From the NCBI GenBank assembly GCA_003990765.1, contig RBNJ01000115.1, positions 1 to 40,970 of the forward strand: a stretch of 40,970 bases of DNA, read 5' to 3'. This DNA is from Jimgerdemannia flammicorona (lineage: Eukaryota). Below the pieces are notes generated by a model, which was not told where the DNA came from, did not search any database, and saw only the letters and a list, made by a program, of their open reading frames with translations. A program made the translations under genes and the position numbers. Numbering within the stretch: the stretch's first letter is position 1; each line of letters starts with the position of its first letter. Below, one piece after another: positions 1-26,210 of this stretch.

Positions 1-204
1 CATCACTAAGCCTCGCCGTTGCCCTCCCTGAGGTCCCCAACCCACCCACCATCCGGTCAGCAGATCCCCCACCAGCTCCTCCCACCGTAACACCTTTGCA
101 CCTAGCCCCAGCCGCTGCCCCTCCTCAAATACAAAGAGCCAATGGCCCGCCAACCCCACCCATACTGCCAACACCCACCCTACAGTGAGCCAACTATCCC
201 CCAC
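1..204 (-). mobile_element. 5'-truncated fragment of LINE family B (3' end of ORF2), inserted in the chromoviral pol
   Basis: Reverse complement aligns without gaps to 40690-40893, the C-terminal end of the LINE ORF2 at the other end of the window. Immediately after it the gypsy RNase H frame starts (PYEVTTNASD). Confidence 0.9.
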
Positions 205-2071
205 ACCATATGAAGTTACTACTAATGCCTCTGACCTAGCTCTTGGAGCAGTGCTCATACAAGAAGGACACCCTGTGACCTATCACTCTCACAAGTTCAA
301 TAATGCTGAAATTAACTATGTAACCCATGAGAAGGAAATGCTAGCCATCATAGACACTTTGATCAAATGGCGACCATATCTAGAAGGAGTACACTTTACT
401 GTATTGACTGACCACAAGTTATTAGTCAATATCAAGACACAGGCTACCCTTTTTCAAAAGCAAGCCAGATAGATGAAAGTTCTCACCAACTTTGACTACA
501 AAATCCAGTACTGCTCTAACAAGGAAAATATTGTTGCCGATGCAATCTTCAGACCACTAATCAAAGAAGTTATCCAAACTCTCACCTTGGTTACAAACTC
601 CATCACGGAATAAATTATCACAGTATGTGCTGATGATAAGGAAGCTCAAGTACTTTGAGAAATCCTGAACAGTAATGATGCTAACAAGCATACACAGTAT
701 CACCAATACCAACTAAAGGGCAACACTATCTACTACAAGGACAGACTGTATGTTCTAAATAACCAAGACCTCCAAAGGACTATCCTATTTGAATATCATG
801 ATACACCTATAGCTGGATATTTAGGATTTGACAAATGCTATGAAGTTATCTCCCAAAACTTCTATTGGCCCCATATGATAGATTAGCTCAAAACCTACAT
901 TACTTTCTGTGATGTCTGCTAATGAAATAAGTCCTCAACACTAGCAAAACCTGGCTTACTTCACCCTATCCCAGTACTATCTGCGAATTGGGAACAAATC
1001 TCTATAGACTTCATTATACAACTACCCTGAACTAAGAATGGGAAAGATGTAATTGTTGTCTTTATGGATTACCTCAGCAAATAAGCCCACTTTGTGCCTA
1101 CTACCACTACTGCAACAGCACCAGACATAGCCATACTCTTATTTGACAATATCTTCCACTATCATGGTCTTCCTAAGATCATTGTTAGTGACCGAGACCT
1201 GAAATTCACCAGCTATTTTTGGAAAGCCCTCCATGCATATCTTGGAACAAAACTTGCACTATCTACAGCCTTTCACCCAGAAACTGATGGCCAAACCGAA
1301 AGAATGAACCGAACTCTAGAACAAATGCTAAGGAACTATGTTTCCTATAGACAAGATGATTGACATGAACACCTGACCACAGTTGAGTTTACTTATAACA
1401 ACAGCAAGCAAGCCTCTCTGGGAATGACCCCATTCTTCGCCAATACTAAACAAAACCCAAACACCCCTTTGACACTTATCCAAACCACTGAAGAACCCTC
1501 TACAGTCAAAGCTGTTGAAGAATTCTTACTCTGAATGCATAATCTAAGCCAGATTGCTATTGAGAACTTATTATGAGCTCAAGAATAACAGTTACAGTAT
1601 GTTAACCAATACTGCCAAGAAGAAATCTTTGATATTGGAGAAAAAGTTCTACTAGACATCAGAGGATACCAAGTTGATAACCTCAAGCACAGACCATCTA
1701 CAAAGCTGAACAGCAAGTTCATTGGACCATTTGAAGTCATTGTATAAATCTCTCTAACCTCCTACAAATTGGCACTACCAGACACTATTAAGATTCACCC
1801 AGTCTTCAATGTCCAATATCTCAAGTGATACAATGAGAATGATGATAAACTATTCTCTAACTGAACCATGAAACCACCTGTACCTGTCATTATTAATGAC
1901 CAAGAAGAGTATGAAGTTGAACAAATCCTCAACAAACGTGGCCACAAGAACCACCCTGAGTACCTTGTTAAATGGAAAGATTATCTAATCTATGATACAA
2001 CCTGGGAGCCCAAGACCAACTTCCAGAATACTACCAACTTAGTTCAGGAATATGATTTCTTGAACAACTAA
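205..2071 (+). pseudogene. pol: Degenerate Ty3/gypsy chromovirus pol (RNase H, integrase, GPF, chromodomain)
   Basis: RNase H motifs (VTTNASDLALGAVL, EKEMLAI, TDH); integrase core (IVSDRD, FHPETDGQTERMNRTLE); KFIGPF and IHPVFNV; chromodomain EEYEVEQIL..EYLVKWKDY..TWEP. Many in-frame stops. Confidence 0.92.
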
Positions 2072-2479
2072 AACCAAATACTCTGTACCTATCCATATAT
2101 ACTATATATTATCCTCCCAACACTATAATTATCAAAAATCAAGAACTCAGCAAAATAAGACAAGAATACTGACCCTCTGGAAAAAATAGCAAAACTGAAA
2201 GCCAGCCTATTCTCCCCATACCACTGGTGGGAAACAAGATATAGACATTTAAGAAGATTCCTTAGAGGAAATTCTCCAGCAGTGAATGATGTCAGAATCA
2301 CTTCTGGCACACGGCATTAAACACATGACCCTTTAACATATAAATCCAATGCGTTAGGCAACTGTACTATGAGCATGCCACTTTCTGAGAAAAATGGACT
2401 TCACTGGACTTTTGACCTCTCAAACAGTGTAACAATACTAAAACAAAATTGGAAGGTCCCAACAAGGATGTCGAAAGCT

Positions 2480-2492
2480 AAGAAGGGGAGAG
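2480..2492 (+). promoter_or_regulatory. Polypurine tract of the chromovirus
   Basis: AAGAAGGGGAGAG lies directly before TGTAAG (2494), downstream of the pol stop. Confidence 0.75.
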
Positions 2493-2493
2493 T

Positions 2494-2713
2494 TGTAAGT
2501 GCACAACCTCCAAGTCACTGAAATTACATGTCACCCTCTGAACAAGCCACTGAAATCACACATGACCTCTGAACAAATCTGGAAATCACCTGCTCAATCA
2601 TGAAGCTGAGTCAAACTGAAGTTACAGCACACAAAGATGAGTCAATACGAAGTCACAGAACACAAGATTCACATAAATAGAATCTTACCAATCAGGACCA
2701 AATGCATATATAC
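2494..2713 (+). repeat. Chromovirus 3' LTR, left part (interrupted by gypsy element A)
   Basis: Starts TG after the PPT and ends at the ATAC target site of the nested element. The partner LTR is not in the window. Confidence 0.65.
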
Positions 2714-4185
2714 TGTAATGTGCCGGCTCAATAGAGGCAAATTACAAGATTGGGGGTTGATGTAGTTTGGCTTGAGCCCCCAGTTACTTTGTTAAAAGCA
2801 ACAAAATGTTCTTGGTATTTAGTAGTATAATAGTCAAGATCTGGATACTGTGCAAGCGATTTCCTTATTGGGACAGTTCTCTGGGTGTAGTGGTGATTTG
2901 TGTGTCTTTTCCTTCTTGAGTCAACTGGGAATGGCACAATTTGTGTGTAGCATGAGTGGTTTCCTTCTTGAGTGACGGGTGATTTCTGTGTAGTGCGACA
3001 ATCTTCAAAAGTATGCGATTTCTGAGTGATGGTCTTGGTGCGATGATCTTTGTATAGCGCGACGATCTCCAAAAGTATGCGATTTCTGGCGGATGACTCG
3101 ATTCGGCTCACTGGGAATTGTATGGTGTGGATTCTTCCATAACAGGCTCACTGGGAATAATGGATACCTCGGATGGCTCTAATGCGGATAACCCGAAAGT
3201 GGTGGATGATGCAGATTTGGCGGGCTTCTTGGAAGCAGCAGCTTAACTGGGAATTAACTCAGATGGCGCGGATTCTTCTAAATCGGCGGCTTCAACTGGG
3301 AATACAATGGATAACTCAAAATGGTGGGGTTCTTCTGGGAAACGGGATGGTGCGGATTCTTCCTGAATCGGTGGGCTCTAACTGGGAAACGATGGCGCGG
3401 ATTCTTCCTGAATCAGTGGCTTCAACTGGGAAACGAACAACTGGCGGCATTCTTTGGGAAAGGGTTTCTTGGCAAAGTTATGTCAAAGACTGGCTTTGTT
3501 TGTACAAACGGATCACTGCGAAGTTGTGTCGGAAACTGGCTTGGGCAAGGTGGCTTTCTCTGGGAATGTGGATAACTTGGAAATGGCAGCTTATTCCTTA
3601 AGTGGCAGATTACTCAAAAGGTAGCGAAGTTCTCCTTGAACTTAGGTGGCAAATCTTCAGGCTTATCTAGCAAGTGAACCAATAGTTCCAAAGGCGGTGA
3701 AGTTCTTCCTTGAACTTGGCGGCAAAATCAGCTTTGTATCGGAAAGTGGACCGGAGTGGAAAGGGGACCAATGCTCAATCTTTAGAGGCTTGTTTGGTAT
3801 TTGTATTTCGGACTGAGGTTTTATTCACTCTCGCCTCTGGGGTAATTTATACAAGTTGGTTGCTATCTGGTTACTATATGGCTAACTATAGATTTGCTAT
3901 CTTTGGTAATGTTTGGGTGTGTCCTCTGGGTACAGGTGTGTCCACAGGATATGAGTTGTCCGCAGAATATGAGTATGTCCGCAGAACATGAGTGTGTCTG
4001 CAGGACATGAGTGTGTCCTCAGGATACAGGTAAACAATCCTGATCTGGTGTCTTGGCTAATTATAAGTATGGCGGGCATGAGTAACTATGATACACTGGA
4101 AGTCACATCATGCTGAGTAAGTATGCTAATTGTTCATGTCATCTGGCTAAGTTATAATTCAGGTGGTATGTTTTGGTCTGTTACA
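2714..4185 (-). repeat. 3' LTR of gypsy A (1472 bp)
   Basis: Direct repeat of 11780-13188. TATAAAT at 3845-3851 and AATAAA at 3820-3825 on the minus strand. Internal ~45-bp repeats (about 3200-3440) and 18-bp repeats (about 3935-4025). A G-rich PPT-like tract is adjacent at 4186-4197. Confidence 0.95.
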
Positions 4186-4224
4186 TCAGCCCCCACTGAA
4201 GGGTAGTCTGTCTCAGATTATTCT

Positions 4225-4737
4225 TCAGTCATCATTCCAATAGGCATAGGCTGCTTCTGCATCTATACCTGTTCCATCATCATCCTCTGAGCTGCAGTCA
4301 CTCCATTCCAGGGGCTCTTCTTCTTCCTCAGGAAATAGGATCTCCACTTGGTGAATAATGCTGAGGTAGGTGGGCTGTGTCATCCTTTGGAGGTCATTCA
4401 GGGAAAACTGGGCCTGGATTAAGGCAGAAGGATTTCGTTTGTATATTGTGTATAGTCTGTCTGCAGTGGTAGTATTCCTTCTGTTCAGGCCAGTGGTGTT
4501 TCGGACATAGGCTAGGTCTGGGAGAGGAAGATTCTGCAATTGTTCTCCAATTGCATAATATGCCTGTAGCTGGTGGACCTGGAGTAGCCTTTCAGCCAAA
4601 GTGAGGTTCTCTTGATGAACTCGGATTCTCTGAAGATAGGTTCCATTGGGTTCCCAGAACTGAGGCAGGGGAACTGGTAGGGCTTGGAGGGAACTGAGAA
4701 CAAGAGTTTGGAGGCGGTTGTCAATTCTCTGATTCAT
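4225..4737 (-). CDS. Intact 170-aa accessory ORF between pol and the 3' LTR; unknown function, acidic C-tail
   Basis: ATG-started and stop-free, on the element's sense strand at the env position. Collinear similarity to the decayed ORF at 13260-13781. Confidence 0.8.
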   Translation of the reverse strand: MNQRIDNRLQTLVLSSLQALPVPLPQFWEPNGTYLQRIRVHQENLTLAERLLQVHQLQAYYAIGEQLQNLPLPDLAYVRNTTGLNRRNTTTADRLYTIYKRNPSALIQAQFSLNDLQRMTQPTYLSIIHQVEILFPEEEEEPLEWSDCSSEDDDGTGIDAEAAYAYWNDD

Positions 4738-7269
4738 GGTATGAGAGAAAGTATATCTTGAGGTGATTGATGTATACTGGTGTTCTCAGGGTTCATCCAT
4801 CCATGCTTCTTAAATAGATGCTGGTTCCTCTGATGTTGTGTACAAGATAAGATCCTTCCCATTTTGATTCCAGTTTGGCGGCAAAGTTTGTCTCAATCAT
4901 GCTTCTCCAAACTAGGACTTGATCTCCAATCTTGATCTCCTGATCCTTCTGTTTTTGGTTATAGTACTTCTTTTGTCTTTCCTGGGCTTTGATAATCTGT
5001 CCTTGGGCTTGATTTCGTAACTGTTCTGTCTTCTTGAGGAGGTCTCCAAGATTCTCATGGTCAGCAGTTCTGGTTTTCTTGGCAAATATCATTTCGAATG
5101 GCTTTTGTTTGGTGGATGTAGCAGGGGTGTTCCGAATTTCCCATAGGATCTCAGGTAAGCAGAGGTCCCAATTAATAGGGTTGACTCAGGCAAGTCCTTT
5201 CTTGATAGTCTGGTTCATTCTTTCTGTCATACCATTGGTCTGGGGGTGGTATGATGTGGTCCTTTTGAGGTGGATCTTGTGAATTCGGGCATAACTTGTG
5301 ATTATGTTGTTGATGAATTCTGTGCCTCGGTCAGAGATGAGTTCTTCTAGAGGTCCATATCTGAGTGTGAGTCCATGGAGGAGACCTACAATGGTTAAGG
5401 CATCTGCGATTTCCATTGGGAAAGCCTTGGGCCACTTGGTCAGATGTTCTATAAATACAAGGATGTATTTATTTCTTCTTAGTGTAACTAGTAGAGGTCC
5501 AATTACATCTACTCCCCATCTTTGAAAGATGTGAGTGGATGGAGAAATCAGTTGCAGAGGGGCTTGATAGTTCTTCTTTCCTTGGTATTTCTGGCAGGTG
5601 TCACATTTCTGAATGATGTCTCGGACTTGAGTTCTGAGGTGGGGCCAATGTTGATATTCTTTTTGAATCCTCTCTTCTATGCTTGTCTGTCCTTGGTGAG
5701 CTTTCTGATGTTCTTTTCGGATAAGATCTTCTTATGCTTTGATGGTCTGAGGAGCTTCCTTTAGAGTATGGTTCCTTGGGACACCCTTCATCTGATTCAT
5801 TGGGGCTGGCGGGAAAGTACATCAACATTGTTGTAGGCTTTCCCTGCTTTGTGAATGATGGTGATTTTGTAATCCTGAAGGATAAGGATCCAGTGGGCTA
5901 GAATTCTGGCAGGTTCCTTGTGGTTGAATAGCTATTTGAGGGCTGCATGGTCTGTAATCAGGGTGAACCTTTTTCCAATGAGATAATGCTTGAACAGGGT
6001 GACCGCCCATATGACTGCAAGGTACTCCAGTTTGGTGCTACCATAGTTTGTCTGCTGCTGATTGGTAGCTCTGCTTGCATAAGCTATCACATGGTGCTAT
6101 TGGTCAGGTCCTTCTTAGGCTAGAACTGCTCCTAGGCCATCTTTGGAAGCATCTGTATACAAGATGAATGGCTTCTATAGATTGGGGTGCACAAGGATTG
6201 GTGCTGTAGTCATGCGGTTCTTGAGTTCTCTGAAGGCTTTTTCCTGTGATTCTGTCTATTTGAATGTCATTCCTTTCTTGAGAAGGATTCAGATTGGGGC
6301 AGTAATTTGGGCAAAATCCTTGATGAACCTTCTGTAGTAGGATACTAGCATCAAGAATGATAGTGTTTCTTTTGGAGTCTTGGGTACCAGCCAATTGTTG
6401 ATCTTCTCGGTTTTCTTTGGGTCTGCATGAGTTCCTTCTTTTGAAACCACAAATCCCAGGAATTCAAGTTTCTGTTTTCCAAAGTAGCATTTCTTTGCAT
6501 TCAGTCTCAAGTGATTCTTGCAGGTGAGCTTGAAGAATTCCTCTAGGTGGTACAGGTGTTCTTCAAAATTTGCTGAATAGATGTTGGAGTCATCCATGTA
6601 TACAATCAGACAGTGGTGGATCAAGGGGGCATAGACTGAATTCATCATCCTCTGGAAGGTGGGGGGTGCATTGCAAAGTCCAAAAGGCATTCAGAGGTAT
6701 TCAAACAATTTTTCTAGAGCAAGGAAAGCTGTCTTTTGAATGTTCTTGGGGTTCATGGGGATCTCATGGAATCCTGCGAAGAGGTCCATACTGCTGAAGT
6801 ATCTGGCATCTTGTAACTGGTCCAAAAGATCATCGATTCTGGGCAAGGGATAAGCATCCTTTTCAGTGACTGAGTTGAGTTTTCTGTAATCCATGCAGAG
6901 TCTCCATCCTCCTTTCTTCGGTACAATAAGTATAGGGCTGGCCCAGGGGCTGGTAGAGGGTCGAATGACTCCATTGTCTAAGAGTTCTTGGATGTGCTCC
7001 TTTTCAAATATTTTCAAGTGATGGGGTATTCTATAGGGTTTCTGCTGGATGGGTGTTGCATTTCCTGTATTTATGCTGTGGTGATATGATGGGTTGTATG
7101 GTAGGTTGCCATAATCGGTGGTGAAGATATCTTGATATTTGTTGAGAAGTTCTACTAGTTGTTGCTGTTGTTGAGGTGTCAATTCTTCTCCAATGTTGGT
7201 GGAAGGCTTCACTGTCTCCTGGGTCGCAGAGGGGCCTTTCCTTTCTTCTGGGACCTTTTGCTGTTTCCC
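4720..7269 (-). pseudogene. pol: pol of gypsy A: RT, RNase H, integrase (no chromodomain)
   Basis: RT: SPWASPILIVPKK, RLCMDYRKLN, YPLPRIDDLL, MPFGLCNAPPTFQR, YMDD. Integrase: HHCC (EHQKAHQG..CDTC), GVDVIGP, ISDRGTEF, NGMTERMNQTIK, KIGDQVLV..KWEGSYLV. Contains stops and frameshifts. Confidence 0.93.
7222..7269 (-). promoter_or_regulatory. Putative -1 ribosomal frameshift signal
   Basis: G GGA AAC heptamer (7269-7263) in the correct phase, a 7-nt spacer, then stem GGTCCCAGA/TCTGCGACC. The -1 frame runs into RT (VKPSTNIGEEL). Copy B has GGGAAAT at 21050-21056. Confidence 0.7.
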
Positions 7270-7617
7270 GATAGGTTTAGTTCATAAACTTCTCTATGAG
7301 TTTGGTTGAGAAAAGGCACCAAATGTCCTATGATGGTTCCTTTTGGCAGGATGATGGTCTCCCAACTTTGGTTGGTTGCTCGGGAGTGTACTGGATTCAT
7401 CTTGTCAGGGAATGTGTGTCCCTCTATGTCTAGGTGTGGGATATCTTCCTTAGGTTCAAAGAAAAGGTTTCTGGGGTTGGGTGGTGCAAGATTTCGAAAG
7501 TAGTTTGTTCTCCAGGCTCCAGGATGAGATTCTTGTGCAGTCTGACTGGTTGCCGGTATACTTGCTGGGGGACATCCCTCTTGAGGCGGTTGACTTGAAG
7601 GAGATGTACCTCTTTTC

Positions 7618-7990
7618 TGTCTGAACTTCCAAATCCCTTGGCTTGTCTTGTTCCTTCAGTTAGTTCAGAAACTTCCTATAACAGTGGGGTCTTGACCTTC
7701 ATGAAGACTGCTTGGGAAATCTTCTGTCCTCTAATGATTCGGTGCCATTCTGCACTGCTGTTGTGTAGGATAATCTTGATTTCGCCTGTATATCCGGGGT
7801 CAATGGTTTCTCCTTCTACAGTTATTCCTTGTCTGGCAAGTCTGGACCTTGAGGTCAGTTGAATATAAGCTCCTTGAGGTGGCTGCATGGCTAATCTGGT
7901 TCTGACCATGAAGGTTTTTCCAGGCTTGATGGATTCATCCTCCAGGCTGTGAAGATCATATCCTACATCCTCTGGGTGGGCTTTGGTCGG
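7618..7990 (-). pseudogene. dut: dUTPase domain of gypsy A, between protease and RT
   Basis: All five dUTPase motifs are recognisable: DVGYDL, SRSRLA, TIDPGYTGEI, KISQ, RQAKGFGSS. Also present in copy B at about 21407-21775. Confidence 0.9.
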
Positions 7991-9329
7991 GGGTTAGGCC
8001 TTGGGGTGCAGCAGGGCATACTGGGCAATATTCTTGCTGAGTTCGGGCTTTCCGAAGGCTGAGGCTCCACTGGTAGAAAGTCTCCAAGCTCTAAGGTTGA
8101 GGTGTGGCCATCTGGCTCCAGTAGAGGGGTCTCAGAGGTAATTGATTCCCCTTCTTCCTGTAGGATCAAGGGCTTCCATGAAGTTGGTGGTATCTTCTGC
8201 CCATCCTTGGTGGGTTGCATGTCTGATAAGAGCTAGGATGTCTTCTCCCAAATTGTAGATCTTGAGAATTCTTTTTCCAGGCTTCTTGGTCTGGCTTTTT
8301 CGAATCTGGCTCTTTCGGATCTGGCTTCAGTTATCTCCTTTCTTCAGGGTGTGTACTGCAACATCATGACTGAGGTGAATCTTCTGATGTCTACAGTCTC
8401 AGCAATCAGGGTGTCTTCCATGGTTGCAATATCCCATTGCTCGGAAATGATGTTCCCGGCTATTTATCTCTTGTTGTCTTGGGAATCGGTACCCATCTTG
8501 ATCATAGGTTGGGGGAAGGGTAGACAAGGGGTATATTTCTGTTCGGGTGAAGAAGCCTTGTCCCCTAAATCGACTTTGTAACCTTATGGTGACCTCTTGA
8601 AAGGTAGTGGACTGTATAAGAGTAGTTGGGGGTTCTGGCCTCTGGGGTCTCTGTCTTTCTTGTTGGTCCAACAGATGACACTGATAGCAGTAGTCTCGGG
8701 GAGAGTGGAAGGCTATTTGATGTGGACATCTTTCTAGCCGGAAAGCTTTCTCTTGGTGGGTTTCTTTCTTGGGGATAATGGTAATGGTACTGGGTCCTTT
8801 CTCTATATTCCAGGGGTCATTGTCTTCAGGTGGTATCCACCGAGGGTCATCCCAGGGGATGAGTTCAGGGACTTCTTCTTCATCAAGTGCTTCTTGTTCA
8901 GGAACTTCTTAGTCAGAAGTTTCTTCTTCCTCGGATGATTCTTGGCCCCAAATTGCTTGTACTTCTGCAGCTTTGGTCACAGGTGTTTCGGGAACATGTC
9001 TGCATTTCTTCTTCTTCCTTCTATATTCTGGGTAGGCTGCACCAGACGATTTCCTTTTTCCCATGATCTTGGAGGAGTGCTCAGGACACTTGTATCTCTT
9101 GAGGCATATAGGGCATCCTTTGGCTTCCCCTGCAATGGCTCCAATAGTGATAGGGACAGTGTTCTTGGCCCACACATTGTCTTCTGGTCTGTCATCTACC
9201 AGATTGATTTGGGGATTGAGTCTGGGATCATTTCCATCTTCGGATTCTTCTTCCTCTTCTGTAGTAGACTCCTCACTGCTGGCATATTCTTTTTGAATAG
9301 TGATCTTCTTCTTCTTCTTTGATTGCTCG

Positions 9330-11740
9330 TAGCTGGTCACCTTAACTCTATACTTTTTGCCTCAGTAGTCAAACTTGAGTACTTGTTGGCCAATGTCAAC
9401 AACTGCATTCATCTCCTTCATCCAATTCATGCCAAGAATCATATCATAGGTGACAGCTTCAGTGACAACAGCTTTGGGAATAGAGAACTGAATGTGTCCA
9501 AGGGAGATGGTGATATTTCGTACTTCTCCAAGGGGTTGAGTTTGGGCTCCATCTGCTACTATGATGCTGAGGTTGGATGGTCCATCAATGGGCCATTAGA
9601 GGGTGTCCAAGAATCGTTTGGCAATGACACAGACAGCTGCTTCTGTATCTATGAGGATTTTCGCTTTTTGCCCTCCAATATCTCCATGTAAGTAGGTGCT
9701 GACATGTCTTTCAGCTGCTTGGACCGGAATGGAAGCTGGTTCTTGCTGTGGGATTGGAACTCAGCCAGTGCTAGACCTGGTAGTTCTCAGCAATTTGTTT
9801 CGGACTCCAGCTAGTGTCAGTTGCAAAAACTACAGGAGAGGGACTTCCATCTTGGCTTCTTGAATCTTCTGCCAGGCTTCATTGTAAATATCCCTAGGCA
9901 TGGTCTTCAGGGTGTACTTCTTCTTAGACTTTGGAGCAACAGGTTCCCATTCTTCTTGTTCCATTTCTTCATCTTCTGGTAGCAATTCATTTGTCTCAGA
10001 CACAAAGGGTGAGGGGGTTCAGGGAGGTATTTCAACTTGTTCCTCCTCATGTTCTTCATCTTCTTCTTGAATAATTCTCCTGCTAATGTTCCTGGATGGT
10101 CTTCCCACAGGTCTCTTTCTTTTCTCTGCTGGGTAGACTGTCTTTCGGGTGATAACCTTGATAGGGTACAAGTCTAGGTCACTGTAGTCTTCACTGTTGC
10201 TTGCTTCCTCGAAATCTTCAACAGGATGGGCTTCAGTCTTCTTGTACTGGGTGTCATTCCTTCGGTTTGGTGGTTCTGAGTCCCTTTGGTCACTTCTTTT
10301 GTTGTCACATTCAGTGGCATAGTGTCCAAGTTGTCCACAGTGGAAGCATTGGACTTGGGCTCTGTCTCGGACAGGGTACCTTCTTTCTTCTTGCTGGTAA
10401 TTCCTGTTATCTCTTGATGGATAACCTTGGCTCCTCTGTGGTGGGTACCCTCTGTTGTTTTGGTAGTCCCAATTTTCGCGTATGGTGAGTTTTTCAATCT
10501 GTCCAACCAATCAGTCTAACTTGGAGCTGAGGTCTTGAATTTCGCTTCTGTCCTTCTTTCCTTCCTTGGCTGGCCTTCTTTCTTCAGACCTTTCTTGTCC
10601 TTGAAGGAGTCCTTGCAGGGCTTTGACCAGGATATCTTCTTTATCTTCCTTTTTGTCATGGTCACTCCAGGTAGTTCCTTGTCTGACATCAAAGAATCCT
10701 TGGACTGCATCTACTTGTTCTTCAGACCTTCTGATGCCTAGGGTGCAGACATGCTGGGCAATATTCAGGGGAATTCCATTCATGAAGGTCATTGGACCTA
10801 TGATGTCCTGGTTGGTAGCATTGAACCCAGCAGAATGCATTCTCTTCTGGATTCTTATGAAGAAGGCTCTGGGTGATTCTCCAAGATTCATCTTCATCCC
10901 CATGATGGACTCCTGAGCCTTGTGGCGGGGTTCATTTCCTGCATACTTTTCTATGAGCCAGTAGACCATGGCCTGATATTCTAGCTCATAGGAGACTGCT
11001 GCTTGTATCTGTCTTGCTAGTTCCAAATCTGGGTTGTTTGCTGTTTGATGGAAAATCCCTCTGGCTGGTTCTCTGAGCTGAGCTTTGTAGATGGCAATCT
11101 TTCTTTCATCTGAGAGATTCCTCAAGGCTGTGATTCCTTCGATTCTATCAAGGAATTCTCTGGGGTCTTCCTCTAGGTATCCTGCAAAGATTGGCAATGA
11201 GGTGGCCATTTCTTTGTCACTTTCTTCTGATTCTGGTTCGAATTCGGATTCTGATTCACTTTCTGAACTGTCACTAGAGACCAGGGTGCTTGGGTATCTT
11301 GAAGATGGTGTTCTTGTTCTTGGGTGAGGTGGAGTAGGCCTAGGTATCCTTGTAGGAGCTACTTCTGGTTCTGCAAGAGGTTGTGGTAGGGGTTCTATTG
11401 GTGAGATGGGTGGGACTGGTGTATGCTGTCTGGCTGTAAGATGTTGGGTCCGGGTAATAAGTTTGTCTAGTTCTTGTGCAAGTTCTTCAAAAACTCTGGC
11501 AGGACTATCTGTATTATCTGCTTGATCTGGTTGATCTGGTTGATCTGGTTGGGGATTTCGGACTATACTGCCTCTTGCTTCTGGTTGGGATCCTTCTGAT
11601 GCTGGGTAGTTGGCAAGTCTTGAGGTGATTACTTCTCTTCCTGTCCAAATACTAGTGATGACTGGTTCTCCTATAGTGGCAGAGGTTGGTGTTGTATCAA
11701 ATGTATCCAGTTTGACTGTGGATTCTTGTGAGCTGAAAAG
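9330..11740 (-). pseudogene. gag: gag-protease of gypsy A (single frame)
   Basis: Capsid-like start LPIFAGYLEEDPREFL; CCHC knuckle CFHCGQLGHYATEC; protease ILIDTEAA (copy B ILIDTGAA). The frame continues to the dUTPase apart from point-mutation stops. Confidence 0.88.
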
Positions 11741-11759
11741 TCACGTCGATTTTGAAATC

Positions 11760-11777
11760 TTCCCAGTTGAGCCCCCA
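11760..11777 (-). promoter_or_regulatory. Primer binding site, tRNA-Pro type (TGGGGGCTCAACTGGGAA)
   Basis: 2 nt inside the 5' LTR boundary. Begins TGGGGGCTC like known tRNA-Pro PBSs. Identical in copy B at 25509-25526. Confidence 0.8.
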
Positions 11778-11779
11778 AA

Positions 11780-13188
11780 TGTAACATGCCAGCTCAATAG
11801 AGGCAAATTACAAGGTTGGGGGTTGATGTAGTTTGGCTTGAGCCCCCAGTTACTTTGTTAAAAGCAACAAAATGTTCTTGGTGTTTAGTGGTATAATAGT
11901 TAAGATCTGGATACTGTGCAAGTGATTTCCTTATTGGGACAGTTCTCTGGGTGTAGCAGCGATTTGTGTGTCTTTTCCTTCTTGAGTCAACTGGGAATGG
12001 CACAATTTGTATGTAGCGCAAGCGGTTTCCTTCTTGAGTGATGGGTGATTTCTGTGTAGCGCGACAATCTTCAAAAGTATGTGATTTCTGGGTGATGGTC
12101 TTGGTGCGACGATCTTTGTGTAGTGCGACGATCTCCAAAAGTATGTGATTTCTGGCAGATGACTCGATTTGGCTCACTGAGAATTGTATGGTGTGGATTC
12201 TTCCATAACAGGCTCACTGGGAATAATGGATAACTCGGATGGCTCTAATGCGGATAACCCGAAAGTGGTGGATGATGTAGATTTGGTGAACTTCTTAGAA
12301 GCGGTGGCTTAACTGGGAATTAACTCGGATGGTGCGGATTCTTCTAAATCGGCAGCTTCAACTGGGAATACGATGGATAACTCAAAATGGTGGGGTTCTT
12401 CTGGGAAATGAGATGGCGTAGATTCTTCCTGAATCAGCGGCTTCAACTGGGAAACGAACAACTGGCGGCATTCTTTGGGAAAGGGTTTCTTGGCAAAGTT
12501 ACGTCAAAGACTGGCTTCGTTTGTGTGAACAGATCACTGCGAAGTTGCATCAGAAACTGGCTTGGGCAAGGCAGCTTTCTCTGGGAATGTGGATAACTTG
12601 GAAACGGCAGCTTATTCCTTAAGCGGCGGATTATTCAAAAGGCAGCGAAGTTCTCCTTGAACTTAGGCGGCAAATCTTCAGGCTTATCTGGCAAGTGAAC
12701 CAATAGTTCCAAAGGCGGCGAAGTTCTTCCTTGAACTTGGCGGCAAAATCAGCTTTGTATCGGAAAGTGAACCGGAGTAGAAAGGGGACCAATGCTCAAT
12801 CTTTAGAGGCTTGTTTGGTATTTGTATTTCAGACTGAGGTTTTATTCACTCTTGCCTCTGGGGTAATTTATACAAGTTGGTTGCTATCTGGTTACTATGT
12901 GGCTAACTATAGATTTGCTATCTTTGGTAATGTTTGGGTGTGTCCTCTGGGTACAGGTGTGTCCACAGGACATGAGTGTGTCCGCAGGACATGAGTGTGT
13001 CCGCAGGACATGAGTGTGTCCTCAGGATACAGGTAAACAATCCTGATCTGGTGTCTTGGCTAATTATAAGTGTGGCAGGCATGAGTAACTATGATACACT
13101 GGAAGTCACATCATGTTGAGTAAGTATGCTAATTGTTCATGTCATCTGGCTAAGTTATAATTCAGGTGATATGTTTTGGTCTGTTACA
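11780..13188 (-). repeat. 5' LTR of gypsy A (1409 bp)
   Basis: Direct repeat of 2714-4185. It is 63 bp shorter, consistent with loss of one ~45-bp and one 18-bp repeat unit. Substitutions are mostly transitions at CpG. Confidence 0.95.
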
Positions 13189-13259
13189 ATACCAAGCACC
13201 AAGACACGTCAAAACAGAGAACTAAAACAAATAACAACCACAACTTCCAATACACAAAC

Positions 13260-13781
13260 ATGACCACTGAGATCTACACCCATATCCACACTGATATTTG
13301 GAATGCCATTGTCAACTGAGCTACTCTCCCTCTGCCCCTCATGAATATCCATAGCCTGGCACCCCTCTATTTCATAGAAGCCCAATGGAATGCCCTAAAC
13401 ATGCTCAATGAGACCTACTGAATTGGACAAATCTCAAGCTACTATCAGATCAGCCACCTCCTAGAAGACATGGTCAAACACTACCATGATACAGACATTA
13501 TCCAGATGTCTCAACACCAGAAACTCATTGCCCGCAAACACCAAGAACTCTTCTATGAGTATAGCACTGTTATTCCCTACCTCTGAGTTATTATAGCCAA
13601 AATGGTTGCTACTCTGTCCTATGGCCAAATCAACAATATGATACAAGAACTCAACCATAAGTATCTCAAGTACGTTGAAACTACAGACAGAACCTTCCCA
13701 CACCTCAACAATCATATCCATGCAAATACCCCAAGTCGAATACACCATGAAGGATGTCTACGATATAATCCACTTCGATGA
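13260..13781 (+). pseudogene. Decayed accessory ORF homologous to ORF 4225-4737
   Basis: Translates as MTTEIYTHIHTDIWNAIVN*ATLPLPLM...Y*IGQISSYYQISHLLEDM. The three internal stops (13317, 13419, 13584) are all TGA, as expected from CGA decay. Confidence 0.75.
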
Positions 13782-14358
13782 AGACAAAGCAGAAGACAAT
13801 GATCCCTCTAATACCAACATGACCTCAAGCCAAGGATCTCTGCCAACCCTGATCACACTGCCAACCTTGCCAATGAACTTATAACAATTCATAACAGCAT
13901 ATGAGACTTATTGGGACAATGACCACTGGCATAAATACCAACCTATGTTTACCCCCAATTACTTCAACTACAATGAAGAGACCAGAGAACACAACCTGTA
14001 TCTCCAGACAACTCTCGAGATTGAACCAACCACTCCACTACCTGAGTATGAGCGACATGAACCACAGCTACCAGCTTACTACAATTCCATGACTCATAGT
14101 GCTGTAACCTACAGAAGGTACGCAGACACCAAATCTGATGAAAGTAAAGACAATGTACCTCTCCTCCACCCACCAATACCTTATCCAGTATATGAGACAG
14201 ATGATACTATTCTGTGGGATGGTGATGAAGTTTCAATATATTATTACCTCAGCAAATAAGGAGAAGTAATCCGTGAACTACTTTTCCTAGACGACTACTT
14301 CATCAGAGATGATATCATTGATAGTAATATCATCGAAGACTACCCAGACAGTGTCTAA
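13720..14358 (+). pseudogene. Second decayed ORF (about 210 aa, acidic, Tyr/Pro-rich), unknown function
   Basis: Track ORFs 13675-13884 and 13945-14259 are in one frame, joined across TAA codons at 13882 and 14257 and ending DYPDSV* at 14358. Confidence 0.55.
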
Positions 14359-15019
14359 ACCTATAAATAGCTTAGCAGGTATAGTATAGTTAGATTAGCC
14401 TTGTATGACATGACTGTAAACTGACTCAGCAGTCAGATGATCTCTTGATATATCAGATTACACTTGTACTATGTGACTGCATTCTGACTCAGCAAGGCAC
14501 TTAGTGCTATATCCATATTTAGCATAGTCCAGATAGCCCCTCACTAGTATAAATATCCCCTCCCCCAGACCTCAGAATTGGAGACTTGAAAGACTTGAAC
14601 AATCTAAACACAACTTCTGAGCACTTCTTCACAATACCCCTAATACAACTACTCCTAGTATAGCAATATCATGAATAGTAAATAAATCTATTTAATAATC
14701 CACAAACTACTCTTAAATAAATCTGCTCCCTGTTAGGTCCCACTCCTAACCCCATCATGAAATTTCCTAATTGGGTATCATCTGTAGCGATATACTGATT
14801 CAACTAAGCTAGTCTTAGTTTCTTGAACTTTCTGAAATATGAAAAATCTTGAATATCCAGAACTAGTCCAAAAAAAAGGACTTTGGTTGAGATATCAACC
14901 CAATCTTGAAATCAATAAGCATAGAGGATGTACTCCATACAAAATTGATCTTGACCATAAGAAAACAGTCTTCCAGAATATCCAGAACTTCCAGAAAACC
15001 CTCCCAGAACTATGTAACA

Positions 15020-18000
15020 GTTACCCTAAAAAGCAACCCTCTTACACTACCTCTCAATCAACTCCCCTATTCTCATCTAAGGATTCTGCTAGAACACTTA
15101 TTATCAATATACTGCCATCAGAATCTAGACTCTAAGGACCCAGTCCAGCCCACTTTAGATATCTCCAGGTACTCCAACTAGCTACTACTTAACTACCAGA
15201 CTAGTGGATTCCCCTGGCCTTTTACTCTCTGAGTCTCAATATTCTTCCAATATCTGTTAATACTCTTCTATCTCTGGACATTTTGTCAGGATATACTCTG
15301 GTAACTACACTACTCTCTCATCTACCTTACTGCATTACTTGCATTCTCAACTACTATCCACCTCCATCTATCCTGTCCTATAGCTCAGTATCACATTTCT
15401 CCTCAGGAATTACCACTATATCACTCAGTACTTAGATAATACAACTTTAAGTAAGGAAGCCCTTCAGCTCCAGATATTTCTCTAATCCCAGTCTTCTCTA
15501 ATCCAGCCTTCTATTAGTCTATAGACTACTTTTCAAGAAGGCCAGCTCTGATCTATTCCATCACTTCTGTTAAAGAGTACTCTACCAACCAGTATCCACC
15601 AATACATAGGCTCTCTAACTATCACCATCACTGCTCTGGATTCTCACCCCTGGCTCTATCAACTCTATAGTTAGCCAGGCCTCCATAATATCCCACCAGA
15701 ACTCTTTAAACCACAATTGACTGAATCTTCTAACCTAAAGCAGTCCTCATATATTCTTCCAGACCTCACCATAGGGGCAGAACCTGATCTCCCAATTATC
15801 TATAGCCAGTCTGCTCTAATCTTCCTCTCTCAACTCTACTAACTGATACTCTTACTAACTTTAGAGTACTTTCAACTGCCTCTAGAAGTCCATCAACTCC
15901 AGACCCTCATCTGCTGTCCTCAACACTACTATCTCTTAATCAATTTGTAGTTATGCTCTCTGCTATAACCATTCTTCCACCACCTTCTTCAGCCTCTGCA
16001 CTACTCAACCAAGAAAGTCTAGATAATACTCCAGATACCATAACTTTGGCAACCAATATATATTCAAAACCACCACTTTTCCCACCAAGGAGAAGTACCT
16101 CCCTGACCAATCTATTAGTACTCTCTCTCACTTCTATATTATACTACACCACCATCTCTTTGACAATACTGTCTTATATACTGAAAACCAGATATCTAAA
16201 TATCAGACAGCATTTTCCACAGCCACTATCTATCCAAATTACTCATTCTCTTCCAAGCCAGCATGAAGCTCCATTGTCTCATACTTGTCTCAGTTCAGTT
16301 TTATACCTACCAGCCTCTCATACTCTCTCACTCCTTCCTGCAGGCATTCTATATTTACTATATAACCTAACTCAACCACTATATCATCAGCAAAAGCCCC
16401 TAGCTTCCAGATCATATCTCTTATTTGCAATCTAGTTAGCTGCTCCTTCAGTCAAGTCAACAAAGGCTCCAAGGAGAGGATATAGAGTAGGGGGGAGAGT
16501 GGGTCACTCTGTGACACACCCCTCTCTAAGGCAAATTTCAGACCACTCTACTTATTCATCAGTACCACTACTCTATAGCCTTGCACCAGCCCCATCAACC
16601 TCCTTATCTCTTCAGCACTGAACCCTGCCTTCTGCAGTACTGCCTTAAGGTAATTCTACTGCATCCTATCATATGCCTTCTTCTGATCTAAGAAGATCAT
16701 CCATCTATCTACTTACTAACTCCTGTAGCCCTCCAAGATATTCTGTATCTAGGCAGTGCTATCTCTAATCTGTCTCTCTTTAACAAAGTCTCTCTGGTCC
16801 TCACTCATCAGTCTGCCAATCCACTGCTATATCCTTCCAGCCAGAATCTTGGATACCAGTTTTCTGTCCATATTTAGTAACATGATTGGCTGTCAATCCT
16901 ACCATATTCACTAATCCCCCTTCTTCTTATACAGTAAAGAGACTAGCCCTACAGAGCTATTGCCAATCCAGCTACTCTTCTTCAAGACAAAGTTTACCAT
17001 TTTTACTAACCAGTCACCAAACTCAACCTGGAACTCCTTCCAGAATTCCCAAAGCAACCCATCCTCCCCTGGAGATAAACCTGCCTGCACTTTCTCCAAT
17101 ACCTCCAACATCTCTTCAAGGGCCACCATACTCATTACTGCCTCACCTATCTCAGATTGCACTATCACTGGCCAACTACCTACCAAATTATTATTATTCT
17201 CCTATAATACCCCACTCTCCACTAACCCCCCTTCATCTTGCCAGAGATCCCACTATTGCCCAGAAATCTTACCCAGCATTTCCATGATTCTCATGACCTC
17301 AGTACCATTCTCTCACAATACTAAAGCCTAGTTATACTGCACCTTTCTGGCCTTTAAAATACCTAATAAATACTTCATAGGCTGCTCTTCTTCCTCCAGC
17401 TGCCTAGTCTGCAGCCTTGCCAGCAGACTATTGACTACTCTATCCTCAGCTGTCTTAAGATCCAGATACAACTTGACTATCTCTACAGCTAATTGAGAGC
17501 ACCTTTCTCCTGATAAGTTCCCCCCTTCTATCAATCTCAACTGCCATTGCAGCCCTTGCTCTACTCTCCTCTCCTTATTCTTTTGCTCCTTTTCAACAAC
17601 CTCTCCTATATCTCACCAATAAGCACTAGCCAAATGTTTAAATTTACTCCACCACTGTTCTATCTGCTGTCCTTTCTTCTTCTACTGCACCATCTCCTGC
17701 TTTGCTATCTCCACAAATTTTTCCCACTCTGCCTGCCTTTGAAGGAGAGCTATATTGAGCCACCAGCAACTCTTACCCCCACTGACTGCCTGAAATCTAC
17801 CACTCACCTCCACTCTCCAGTGATCTGACCAAAGGCACCACTACACCTCTGCAATATTTAGAACATTCCCCCAACCTTCAGCCACCAGAATCCAATCAAT
17901 CCTTATCTCCACCAGACCCTTATCTACTGAATACCACTGAGTAAAGGGCCCAGGCATTTCCCCTTGATGCTGTCAGATACTATCTACCAAGCCTATACCT

Positions 18001-20143
18001 CTCTCAACCTGGAGCCACTGAGCTAGCTCTACTGAAACTGCTACACCTACTCTACTATCAGACCTATCCAGTGTCCTGTCATGAACTATATTAAAGTCTC
18101 CTTCCAAAATGTCCAACCCCATCTCCTCCTAGCCCTCCCATGCTAGCTAACTCTCCACCCATTGCTTTCACTCTCTGCTAACTGCTGGGAGATAGACAGA
18201 GCCCACTACTAGTCCATCTTCCAGTCTACCTTTCAATCTTCTCCATATTAATTGATCACTATAAACTTCCACTTCTATCAGCTCACCTCTACCAATATCC
18301 ACTAAGATGCCCACCTGTCTATTCCAACCAGTATTGCTATACCATTCTCTGCTCTACTCCTTATAGTCCTACTCACTATAGGCTTGAACATCCTAAAGAA
18401 GTATCACATTATACCTTCTGACTTTCAGCCAATGAAATAAATACCACCACTTAACTCTGTCATACAGACCATTAACATTTAGAGATAATATATACAGACT
18501 GTTTATCATCATTGATAAAAATGTTTAAAGTTCCATCAAAATCACTACTACCTTCTCAGCTCTGCTACAGATTATCTCCCTTTGTTTCTCACAGATAGCT
18601 CTCTAAATATATATCCCATTCTCACTGCTATAGAATAAATCCATCTATTCTGATGTCACCTTTCTGATGTCAGCTATTCTGTTCTCATCAACTTCATACC
18701 TCTCATCATTCAGTAGTACCACTACCATCACTATCACCAACTTTGATTCCTGCATTGTAACATTGAGAAATCTCTCTCAAGCCTTCTGAGATCTATGAAA
18801 TATATCTACTTTCTTGATATCTTCCTCCACAAGCTCCTCAAGTACTATCTGGTACCAACTATTCGTTGTTATCACTAGTGGTCCAAGAGTGGCTGGTCTG
18901 GGAGTTCTACTCAACTCCTGTACAACCTCACAACCTCACCAGCCTCTGGATACTCCCAATGAACATTTGCTGCTCTTGCTATCTAAATGTCCTCCAATTG
19001 AGTCTTTAGTACTATCTCCATGATTTCCTCAAAACCCCCCTCTCTCATCTCCTCCTTATTAGCCCACTTCCCTGTCACTGATGCATAAGCTGAACTCTTC
19101 ATACTATCTAGCTGTGAAAATGACATCTCAGCTATCTCTATCTCCTCCATCTGACTTCTGGCTGCCTTCACCCTTGCTGCCTCCTCTGTCTATGAACTCT
19201 GGAGAACTGTCTGCAGGTGTTCCCAGTTCTCTTTCTGCTATCTCTTTCTCCTCTCATTGGTTGGAACCCATATCCAGTTCTTTGTGAACTCCTCTTATCT
19301 CCTTTTTTTCAATTCCTTTATAGCTTTTCTCTCCTCCAGAGTCAGTAATCCTCCTCTTGTTCAGATCTCTTCCTCCTCTATACCTTGCACTCTTGACCAT
19401 TAACCTGAATCACCTCTGGTTAGTTCCTTTCTAACTCCATGGCCTCCTTGCCCTCCAGTCTTACCATTACCTCACAGTTATCATTCCTCAGCTTAGTCCC
19501 CTCCCAGAATATAAATCTGAAATCAACCATCTCACTAAAGCCCCCCAGTATCTCTGCCACTATCTCCTTAGTCTCCTGTCTCTCTAAAGTTGGCAACCCC
19601 TCTACTACTAGATATACATATGGCATGCAGATCCTATCTCAGATATCTCACCATTCCAACCTTGATGCTCTTGACTACCAATCCTTTCTTCAGGGCCTTC
19701 ACTATCTCCTCCTCTTCTATAAAGCCAATCTTCACAGTCTCTACTGACAGAATAAACTTCAGAGACTCTGCACTGGTAATCTTCTCACTCACTAGCTATA
19801 AAACCTCTCTAACAGACAAATCAAGTCCCAGAAAATTTGTCAAAATTGCCCACATTAATACCAATTTGTAGAAAAAAGAATACACCATTAGTTCTCTAGA
19901 GCCAGCTACTATTATTGTCTTCTCCTTATCTCCTAAGATACTAGCAGTCACCCCATCAGCCCCAGAAAGTCTATCAGTAGTCTCTTCCCCAGCCACCAGT
20001 CCAGCCACTGACCTAGTCTCAAGAATACCAGTTTTAGCTGTCATACCTCCAGACTCCTGTCTCCTGGCAGTCATCTAACCTGCCATCTGACCAATCACCT
20101 GACTCCCCCTCTTGTCAATACTATGTCTCCCCTACCCTACTGA
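15020..20143 (-). mobile_element. Heavily decayed near-full-length L1/Tx1-like LINE (family A): ORF1 about 18520-20074, ORF2 from about 18512
   Basis: APE endonuclease motifs SLNVNGL, GDFN, SDH. RT motifs SPGEDG..EFWK, SLLYKKKGD, WQPIMLLN.D.K, LDQKKAYD, RGVSQSDPLSPLL. C-terminal LRRNV..CxxC region resembles LINE B. Confidence 0.85.
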
Positions 20144-23100
20144 AATGATAATATTTCTTTTGGAGTCTTAGATACTGGCCAATTGTTGATCTTCTCAGTT
20201 TTCTTTGGGTCTGTATGGGTTCCTTTTTTTGAGACTATGAATCTAAGGAATTTAAGTTTTTATTTCCCAAAGTAGCATTTCTTTGTATTCAGTCTCAAGT
20301 GGTTTTTGCAGGTGAGCTTGAAGAATTCCTCTAGGTAGTATAGGTATTCTTCGAAATTCACTGAATAGATATTGGAATCATCCAAGTATACAATCAGGCA
20401 GTGGTGGATCAAGGGGGCATAGACTGAATTCATCATCCTCTGAAAAGTGGGGGGTGTATTACAAAGTCCAAAGGGTATTCAGAGATATTCAAACAGTTTT
20501 TCTAGAGCAAGGAAGACTGTCTTTTGAATGTCTTTGGGGTCTATGAAAATCTCATGAAATCCTGCAAAGAGGTCCATACTGCTGAAGTATCTGGCATCTT
20601 GTAACTGGTCCAAAAGGTCATCGATTCTGGGCAAAGGATAGGCATACTTTTTGGTAACTGAATTGAGTTTCCTGTAATCCACACAGAGTCTCCATTCTCC
20701 TTTCTTCAGTACAATAAGTATAGGGCTAGCCCAGGGGCTAGTGGAGGGTTAGATGACTCCATTGTCTAAGAGTTCTTGAATGTGCTCCTTTTGAATATTT
20801 TCAAGTAATGGGGTATTCTATAGGATTTCTGCCAGATGGGTGTTGTATTTCCTGTATTTATGCTGTGGTGATATGATGGATTATATGGCAGGTTGCCATA
20901 ATTGGTTGTGAAGATATCTTGATATTTATTGAGAAGTTCTACTAGTTGTTGTTGTTGTTAAGGTGTCAATTCTTCTCTAATATTGGTGGAAGGCTTTACT
21001 GTCTCCTGGGTTGCAGAGGGGCCTTTCCTTTCTTCTGGGACCTTTTGCCATTTCCCGATAGGTTTAGTTCATAAACTTCCCTATGAGTTCAGTTGAGAAA
21101 AGGCACCAGATGTCCTATGATGATTCCTTTTGGCAAGATGATGGTCTCCCAACTTTGGTTGGTTGCTTGGGAGTGTACTGGGTTCATCTTGTCAGGGAAT
21201 GTATGTCCCTCTATGTCCAGATGGGGAATATCTTTCTTGGGTTCAAAGAAAAGGTTTCTGGGGTTGGGTGGTGCAAAGATTTTGAGGGTTGTTTGTTCTC
21301 CAGGCTCTAGGATAAGATTCTTGTGCAATCTGACTAGTTGCCAGTATACTTGCTGGGGAACATTTCTCTTGAGGTAGTTAACTTGAAGGAGGTGTACTTC
21401 CTTCCTGTCTGAACTTCCAAATCCTTTGGCTTGTCTTGTTCCTTCAGTTAGTTCAGAGACTTCTTCCAATTATAGGGTTTTGATCTTCATGAAGACCACT
21501 TGAGCAATCTTCTGTCCTCTAATAATTCAATACTATTCTGTACTACTGTTGTATAGGATGACCTTGATTTTGCCTATATATCCTGAGTCGATGGTTCCTC
21601 CTTCCACAGTTATTCCTTGTCTGGTAAGTCCAGACCTTGAGGTCAGTTAGATATAAGCTTCCTGAGGTGGCTGTATAGCTAATCCAGTTCTGATCATGAA
21701 GGTTTTTCCAGGCTTGATAGATTTATCCTCCAGGCTGTGAAGGTCATATCCTACATCCTCTGGGTGGGCTTTAGTCAGGAATTTGGCCTTGGGATGTAGC
21801 AGGGCATACTGGGTGATATCCTTGCTGAGTTTGGGCTTCCCTAAGGCTGAAGCTCCACTAGCAGAGAGCTTCCAAGCTCTGAGGTTGAGGTGTGGCCATC
21901 TGGCTCCAGTGGAAGGGTCTCGGAGGTAGTTAATTCCTCTTCTTCCTGTAGGGTCTGGGGCTTCCATGAAGTTGGTAGCATCTTCTGCCCATTTTTGGTG
22001 GGTTACATATCTAATGAGAGCTAGGATGTCTTCTTCCAAATTGTAGATCTTGAGGATTCTTCTTTCTGGCTTCTTGGTTTGACTTTTTCGGATCTGGCCC
22101 CTATTATCTCCTCTCTTTAAAGTATGGACTGCAACATCATGACTAAGGTGAATCTTCTGATGTCTGCAGTCTTAGCAGTCAGGGTGTCTTTTATGGTTAC
22201 AATATCTCATTGCTCAGAAATGATCCTGGCTGTTTATCTCCTGTTGTCTTGAGAATCGGTATCCATCTTAGTCATAAGTGTGTGGAAGAGTAGACAAGGG
22301 ATATATTTCTGTCCAGGTAAAGAAGCCTTGCCCCCTGAATCAGCTTTGCAACTTGGTAGTAACTTCTTGAAAAGTAGTTGACTGTGCAAGTGTGTTTGGG
22401 GGTTCTGGTCTCTGAGGTCTCTGTCTTTCCTATTGGTTTAGTAAATGGCACTGATAGCAGTAGTCTCAGGGAGAGTAGAAGACCATTTGGTATGGACATT
22501 TTTCTAGCTAAAAAATCTTTTCTTAGTGAGTTTCTTTCTTGGGGATAATGGTGATTATACTGGGTTCTTCTTCTGTATTCCAAGAGTCATCATCTTCAGG
22601 TAGTATCCAATGAGAATCATTCCAAGGAATGAGTTCAAGGACTTCATCTTCTTCAGGTGCTTCTTGTTCAGGGACTTCTTGATCAGAAGTTTCTTCTTCC
22701 TCAGATGATTCTTGACTCCAAATTGCTTGTACTTCTGCAGCTTCAGTTGCAGGTGTTTCTGAAATATGTCTGCATTTCTTCTTCTTTCTTCTGCATTCTG
22801 GGCAGGTTGTGCCAGGTGATTTCCTTGTTCCCATGATCTTGGAGAAGTGCTCAGGACACTTATATCTCTTGAGGCAGGTAGGGCATCCTTTGGCTTCTCC
22901 TGCAATGGCTCCAATAGTGATAGGGATGGTGTTTTTAGCCTACATATTGTCTTCTGGTCTGTCATCTACCAGGTTAATTTGGGAATTGAGTCTGGGATCA
23001 TTTCCATCTTCAGATTCTTCTTCCTCTTCTGTAGTAGACTCCTCACTGCTGGTATATTCTTTTTGAATAGTGATCTTCTTCTTCTTTGATTGCTCATAGC

Positions 23101-25934: not shown

Positions 25935-26210
25935 CTGAATCTCAAATCCGAAGCCATCTGAATCAACTCAGATTAATCCGAATCATCTCATCCAAATTGC
26001 CTCATCTAAATCACCCATCCGAACTACCCCAATCTGAATCACTCAATCTGAATCACTCAATCTGAATCACTCAATTCAAATCACTCAATCTGAATCACTC
26101 AATCCAAATTCTCCAATTCAAATCCTCCAATTCAAATCCTCCAATTCAAATCCTTCAATCCAAATCCTCATCTGAATCCTTCAACTGAATCCTCCAATTC
26201 AAATTCTCCA
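25935..26210 (+). repeat. Left subterminal tandem array of hAT, ~13-14-bp units (CACTCAATCTGAAT / CCTCCAATTCAAAT)
   Basis: Directly visible. Also at about 33990-34200 and inverted at about 33330-33700. The right end has TCTGGATCAA repeats at about 32245-32305. Confidence 0.85.

Follow-up and report, generated by a model that had tools for sequence, protein, structure and literature searches.

The window, that is the whole stretch of 40,970 nucleotides that was analysed, contains two nested gypsy elements, the features of which are summarized in Table 1. The pol gene on the plus strand has a C-terminal chromodomain and thus belongs to a chromovirus. The second element carries a dUTPase gene and lies on the minus strand at 2714-13188. 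It interrupts the post-pol tail of the chromovirus (1-2713 and 13189 onward), since its LTRs are flanked by an ATAC duplication and the chromovirus strand resumes at 13189. The two LTRs of the nested element are 92.6-92.7% identical by blastn. Strand composition agrees on the two sides of the insertion, with 1-2000 and 13001-15000 both A-rich with C over G, and 2001-3000 A-rich with a weaker G/C skew. The nested element has no chromodomain match, and its last pol ORF, 4796-5185(-), gives no Pfam hit of any kind. An earlier reading made from the sequence alone (the sequence-only reading) had named the two carriers as a dUTPase gypsy lacking a chromodomain and, apparently, a chromovirus, and the domain matches confirm both.

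Table 1. Features of the two nested elements and their accessory ORFs. Positions are those of the window.
Feature	Position	Strand	Basis or remark
Chromovirus pol, 3' part	1..2071	+	Window begins inside pol; Pfam hits and frame reading
Chromovirus RNase H	32-469	+	Pfam RT_RNaseH, E 5.5e-27
Chromovirus integrase zinc finger	659-883	+	Pfam Integrase_H2C2, E 6.7e-11
Chromovirus integrase core	near 1085-1360	+	
Chromovirus chromodomain	1865-2068	+	Pfam Chromo, E 1.3e-13; directly precedes pol stop
Chromovirus pol stop	2069-2071	+	
Chromovirus post-pol spacer	2072..2713	+	Nested insertion cuts at 2713
Target site duplication ATAC (4 bp), left copy	2710..2713	.	Sequence
dUTPase gypsy 3' LTR	2714..4185	-	TG...CA ends; repeat families D3, D4, D19
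Short spacer, family 1 ORF stop to 3' LTR	4186..4224	-	Contains G-run
Family 1 accessory ORF	4225..4737	-	170 aa, intact, P0001
dUTPase gypsy pol stop	4793-4795	-	
dUTPase gypsy gag-pol, broken	4796..11740	-	ORF map and Pfam
dUTPase gypsy integrase	5189-5731	-	Pfam rve, E 5.1e-07
dUTPase gypsy RT	6292-7281	-	Pfam RVT_1, E 3.8e-17
dUTPase gypsy dUTPase, between protease and RT	7679-7993	-	PF00692, E 7.8e-20
dUTPase gypsy protease	9365-9595	-	
dUTPase gypsy CCHC knuckle (gag)	10022-10510	-	Pfam zf-CCHC, E 3e-06
dUTPase gypsy 5' LTR	11780..13188	-	
Target site duplication ATAC, right copy	13189..13192	.	Chromovirus sequence resumes here
Family 2 accessory ORF, N-terminal helical part	13260..13719	+	TGA at 13317, 13419, 13584
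Extra base, frameshift	13720..13720	+	Absent in other copies
Family 2 ORF, C-terminal part, +1 frame	13723..14259	+	TAA at 13882; final TAA 14257-14259
AYETYWDND	13897..13923	+	Counterpart of family 1 end AY.YW[ND]D[DN]

The post-pol spacer of the chromovirus has 6 stops in one frame and 12 and 15 in the other two (214 codons). The frame with few stops (2162-2713, plus strand) may represent yet another decayed coding region, located between pol and the accessory ORF; a piece of this spacer, 2321-2518, has no Pfam match.

Relatives of both elements occur elsewhere in the window. There is a second, more diverged internal copy of the dUTPase gypsy at 20144-25297(-), which matches 6356-11524 with 81-93% identity and has neither LTRs nor the accessory ORF region. 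An inverted fragment of 208 nt at 40686-40893(-) is 90% identical to the chromovirus RT/RNase H at 1-208, and comes from the same chromovirus family. By eye, the minus strand of about 15000-20100 encodes a non-LTR (LINE-like) reverse transcriptase with an FADD motif, in a stretch with strong C-over-G strand skew; seven stop-to-stop ORF pieces from 15943-20074(-) gave no Pfam hit for this putative LINE-like RT. An 8-kb unit is present twice (26030-31115 and 34023-39183, 79-89% identity). Each copy has one array of 84-nt tandem repeats in a GC-rich stretch (29043-29613 and 37058-37512), and a hAT-like transposase fragment was seen by eye near this unit.

We term the accessory ORF of the dUTPase gypsy and its relatives family 1, and that beyond the insertion family 2. 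The family 1 ORF had been taken as the comparison gene in the sequence-only reading. It exists and is intact, though it is to be read on the minus strand. Its start is 55 nt past the pol stop, in a different frame, and 39 nt separate its end from the 3' LTR; the G-run in this 39-nt spacer may be a polypurine tract (PPT). Database searches found 18 relatives with 46-74% identity, the complete ones being 169-183 aa long. Since it occurs in many relatives family 1 is not a single transduced copy, and we take the ORF to be a genuine gene on the strength of this conservation. The end of the protein is strongly conserved among the relatives as DDG.GIDAE.AY.YW[ND]D[DN], and P0001 itself ends AYAYWNDD. 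The W of this motif is present in all 11 family 1 sequences that reach the end. Ten of the 11 keep AY.[YH]W[DN][DN][DN] at every position, and in the remaining one N replaces the first Y. P0001 has a near-neutral helical body (K+R 12, D+E 9) followed by a tail of 36 residues, of which 15 are acidic and none is basic. No Pfam family was matched at E values up to 1. When PDB sequences were searched with the family 1 alignment, the best match was a coiled-coil dynein regulatory subunit at E 0.019, and we regard this as noise. In three of the relatives of P0001 (P0005, P0007 and P0012) the open frame reaches 20-40 codons further upstream than the usual Met, and by eye this extension is an alternative frame over the integrase end. 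In some elements the accessory gene may thus overlap pol or be reached by frameshifting.

The family 2 ORF had been noticed by reading through three TGA codons in 13260-13781. Read in this way the stretch has 174 codons. The three TGA triplets are codons 20, 54 and 109, and a fourth TGA closes the frame. A word-index search gave one hit from three candidates, P0009, which is the only protein relative of family 2 found. It has 128 aa, is 77% identical to the window copy, and is apparently cut by the end of its contig. In P0009 each of the three TGA sites is an Arg, and its sequence YYQIGRLL agrees with the prediction that ATCAGC in the window copy derives from a Gly-containing ATCGGC. Most of the differences between the window copy and P0009 are C-to-T or G-to-A in the window copy. 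We therefore attribute the TGA stops to CGA-to-TGA transitions in a decayed copy. All four TGAs fall either at an Arg of the intact relative or at the end of the frame.

Contigs of four public runs were aligned to 13189-14600, giving 2007 (X1), 238 (X2), 11 and 4 pieces. With this many pieces, family 2 is no one-off transduced gene either, in spite of its single protein relative. Base 13720 is missing in three X2 contigs (depth 12.3/12.3) and one X1 contig (2.2/2.2). Dropping this base joins the 13260 frame to the +1 frame, which is open from 13723 to 14256 save for one TAA at 13882, and the gene then has approximately 332 codons. The end at 13781 that was first assigned is consequently too early, giving 174 codons where the gene continues in the +1 frame to 14256. 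The second half of the protein is acidic (D+E 30, K+R 10), aromatic and proline-rich, and there are further acidic-aromatic patches in this longer tail. T>C or A>G in the reads accounts for 34 of the 40 best-supported differences listed against 13189-14600. For X1 the differing places comprise 73 T>C, 59 C>T, 46 A>G and 20 G>A. On these substitutions the window copy of family 2 is to be read as transition-decayed. Such a pattern is what deamination of methylated CpG, or a RIP-like process, would leave. The breaks in the gene comprise three CGA-to-TGA changes, a TAA and an insertion of 1 nt.

With four TGA codons in 13260-13781, this might be no gene at all but noncoding tail sequence of a dead element, in which one frame is nearly open by chance. 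That is hardly credible, given that P0009 is open across the same 128 residues at such identity with Arg at each TGA site, and that stops are scarce in the proposed frames only. From 13260 to 13719 (153 codons) the proposed frame has 3 stops compared with 7 and 9 in the others, and from 13720 to 14256 (about 178-179 codons) it has 1 compared with 8 and 19. Past 14257 there are 18-26 stops in every frame. We take the family 2 frame to be a genuine gene, longer than first called.

Further relatives of family 2 were sought more widely. HMMER with the two-sequence family 2 profile against 1.84 billion representatives gave three hits and no member of family 1. One of the hits is P0009; the other two are repetitive surface-type proteins, which were judged spurious because of their T/S/N-rich repeats. 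Scans of metagenome contigs produced 342 pattern matches with the family 2 alignment and 92 with P0009, none of which was confirmed. In viral contigs 0 of 91 matches were confirmed with the family 2 alignment, P0009 gave one confirmed stretch and no loci, and the pattern WNALNMLNE had no match. Two viral contig loci found with the pattern DIWNAIVN (L001 and L002) are not relatives. They share an 8-residue word only, with tblastn E values of 0.13 and 0.002 over 8-18 residues.

The family 2 ORF lies in the sense orientation after the chromovirus pol stop, about 709 nt from it when the nested element is excluded. Given the continuity of the sequence across the nested insertion we infer that it belongs to the chromovirus, in either its internal region or an LTR. 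The ORF could also lie outside the internal region, in the chromovirus 3' LTR or in another repeat that follows, so that the second carrier would be mis-assigned. The 709 nt between the pol stop and the family 2 ATG have no clear ORF, and no 3' LTR, PPT or LTR boundary of the chromovirus was located, its 5' LTR being absent from the window. The summed contig depth goes up two- to three-fold only past about 14340. Yet there is no break in the sequence at the 4-bp target site duplication, the ORF is on the chromovirus strand, and 1-2000 and 13001-15000 share their compositional bias. Moreover, if the depth step is the start of the LTR, the ORF end at 14256 falls about 100 nt upstream of it. We consider a mis-assigned carrier improbable, and proceed with the ORF as part of the chromovirus. 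A loose-end consensus near 14578 was considered as a breakpoint. It has no match in the window, and the window reads nearly alike there, so it most likely reflects divergence close to the end of the aligned stretch.

The sequence-only reading proposed that these two ORFs belong to one protein family, collinear over about 130 aa with offsets of one or two residues. When a single pair of sequences is compared the similarity is at chance. The Smith-Waterman score is 41 (z = 1.7), which 138 of 2000 shuffles reach, and the global score has z = 0.6 and is reached by 483 of 2000. BLASTP gives E = 5.4, in a different register. The shuffle test that had been suggested for the pair thus fails to separate it from random sequences. 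The best blastn E is 0.75, in keeping with the statement that there is no nucleotide similarity, and the accessory proteins are about 20% identical between the families.

Comparison at the profile level rises above chance. The family 1 HMM scored 10.0 bits against P0009. Among 5000 global shuffles one did as well, among 5000 local shuffles four, and the reversed sequence scored 0.5. Against P0002 the HMM scored 8.4 bits; here the numbers of shuffles doing as well were 7 and 9 in 5000, and the reversed score was 0.8. The empirical P therefore lies in the range 2e-4 to 2e-3. When the same HMM was run against the six-frame translation of the window (81936 residues), 13320-13562(+) was the best match outside its own gene, in the register of the sequence-only reading and with E = 0.22; the next-best match was at -5.5 bits. 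Aligning the profiles of family 1 (19 sequences) and family 2 (2 sequences) with hhalign gave a score of 25.0 (P = 0.004, probability 8%). None of 400 column shuffles reached this score, the maximum being 20.8, but the reversed family 2 alignment scored 22.0, so that part of the score, and perhaps much of it, is helical or compositional. The alignment begins at the N-termini of both proteins. The PLP followed by I.Q..YY.IG..L does fall in collinear register by profile alignment, but the offsets exceed one or two residues, since beyond position 90 the alignment contains inserts as long as 9 residues. Similarity above chance is thus seen with the profiles and with a C-terminal motif that the sequence-only reading had not noted, and not with the single pair.

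The motif YW[DN][DN][DN] occurs twice in the six-frame translation, once at the end of family 1 (4228-4242, minus strand) and once in the +1 frame in which family 2 continues. Shuffles give an expectation of 0.013 occurrences in the window, or 0.023 for [YH]W[DN][DN][DN], and P for the family 2 region is about 3e-4, uncorrected for the motif having been chosen post hoc. The AYETYWDND of family 2 is collinear with the end of family 1 and follows an acidic stretch, and requires a one-residue insertion. A C-terminal HMM of family 1 ranks the YWDND site fifth, at -5.9 bits. The motif forms the very end of the protein in family 1; in family 2 it is internal, with about 110 codons beyond.

Comparison of predicted structures had also been suggested. 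The AF2 models of the two proteins have mean pLDDT values of 44.7 and 47.2, and at below 50 the secondary structure alone is comparable. Both are all-helical and soluble-like. Within these low-pLDDT models there is a helix at 3-18, a loop at 19-33 and a helix start at 34 in both proteins, then helices at 86-101 and 85-102, 103-108 and 104-107, and 113-117 and 111-118 respectively, with a helix start at 121 in both. Helix order and boundaries therefore nearly coincide, but the models are too poor for a meaningful three-dimensional comparison. In the ESM Atlas the best scores were 0.88 for P0001 and 0.93 for P0009, and the two share their five nearest clusters (two unnamed, the closterovirus coat Closter_coat, the phage translation repressor Translat_reg and DUF6192). 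These clusters may be a generic attractor for orphan helical proteins or may reflect shared features, and they are not counted as evidence of homology.

Taking the profile scores, the collinear end motif and the matching helix pattern together, it is probable that the two ORFs are homologous. They would share a common plan, comprising an all-helical N-terminal body of about 135 residues with a PLP loop and a long helix containing YY.IG, then an acidic tail bearing A-Y-x-Y-W-[DN]-[DN]-[DN]. Both ORFs have the same position and sense after pol. Alternatively both may be real accessory genes that are unrelated, alike in composition (Q/L-rich helices and an acidic tail) and with acidic-aromatic motifs that have converged. 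The chance-level pairwise scores would be expected from this, as would the small gap between the real and reversed hhalign scores with its low reported probability, and the window-level E value. The families differ too in length, at 170 and about 332 codons, and in the placing of the motif, at the very end or within the protein respectively. Against convergence, HMM scores matched by at most 9 of 5000 shuffles fall to 0.5-0.8 bits on reversal. The collinear motif is independent of the stretch covered by the HMM and is scarcely expected in the window, the alignment runs from both N-termini, and the helix boundaries agree. We regard two unrelated genes as unlikely. We lean instead towards a joint reading, of a nested gypsy pair in which each element has a sense post-pol ORF and the two ORFs are distant homologues within one undescribed accessory family.

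The family was also proposed to be ancient and exchangeable between elements. The conserved pol cores (RNase H and integrase) of the two elements are 32-37% identical, and tblastx between the two pols gives a single 26-aa hit. Descent from a common ancestor with a faster-evolving accessory gene would fit these values as well as would exchange of a module, and with two carriers only, exchange and inheritance cannot be distinguished. An ancient origin is something that we infer at most.

LTR elements of plants are known to carry a class of sense additional ORFs (aORFs) that lie between pol and the 3' LTR (Vicient and Casacuberta 2020, PMC7264820). The family 1 ORF fits this class in its position between the pol stop and the 3' LTR and in its orientation. 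In the available part of that paper the elements are from plants and the sense class named is env-like, whereas the present proteins have no transmembrane-like segment or Pfam family, and their host is probably a soil fungus. There is precedent for one type of ORF3 across lineages in bdelloid rotifers, where the same ORF3 types are described in unrelated LTR lineages, some with dUTPase (Rodriguez, Kenefick and Arkhipova 2017, PMC5408684). The rotifer ORF3s described in the part of the paper at hand are GDSL esterases, DEDDy exonucleases and fusion glycoproteins, whereas here we have an orphan helical protein for which homology across lineages is only probable. Fungal Gypsy elements, including dUTPase-bearing ones, have been drawn with an 'additional ORF with unknown function' (2010, PMC2864245). 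The likeness to the present ORFs is by description only, the accessible portion of that paper giving no sequence family, motif or cross-lineage comparison. No such genes are described in the available text of a survey of fungal LTR elements (PMC3248453). Our literature searches found no description of this accessory family. Sense post-pol ORFs are thus a known kind of feature, and this protein family is probably undescribed.

No transmembrane-like segment was found in Kyte-Doolittle profiles with a 19-residue window, the maximum being 0.57-1.11 in the intact members, and these accessory proteins are therefore not env-like. The decayed window copy has a hydropathy maximum of 1.55, at a site changed by C-to-T. 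The acidic-aromatic tail may resemble acidic activation tails, or the acidic W motifs known from other adaptors. It would serve as a short linear motif by which a host factor is recruited, with the helical body as a module for folding or association. From these sequence features the protein is most likely, we suggest, a retrotransposon-encoded adaptor or regulator and not an envelope protein.

Complex retroviruses encode small non-structural regulatory proteins 3' of pol, with acidic aromatic-rich tails. By analogy the present proteins would be alike in their position 3' of pol and in the acidic-aromatic tail, a likeness of layout and not of sequence or fold. Extra genes in LTR retrotransposons are raw material for retrovirus-like complexity, and to our knowledge they have hardly been catalogued beyond plants, insects and rotifers. 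It is a long shot that one ancient regulatory gene, whose tail recruits host machinery, is carried by many of the Ty3/gypsy lineages in this probably fungal host group, in chromoviruses as well as in dUTPase elements. If so these would be 'complex retrotransposons' analogous to the complex retroviruses, and the tail might activate transcription, say, or serve as an adaptor in trafficking. If one orphan family is common to a chromovirus and a dUTPase gypsy then gag and pol are not the whole functional repertoire of such elements, and the helical body with its acidic W-motif tail becomes a concrete protein with which to probe for a host partner. In decayed copies genes of this kind go unnoticed, as in the present case, where the readable frame is half as long as the true ORF.
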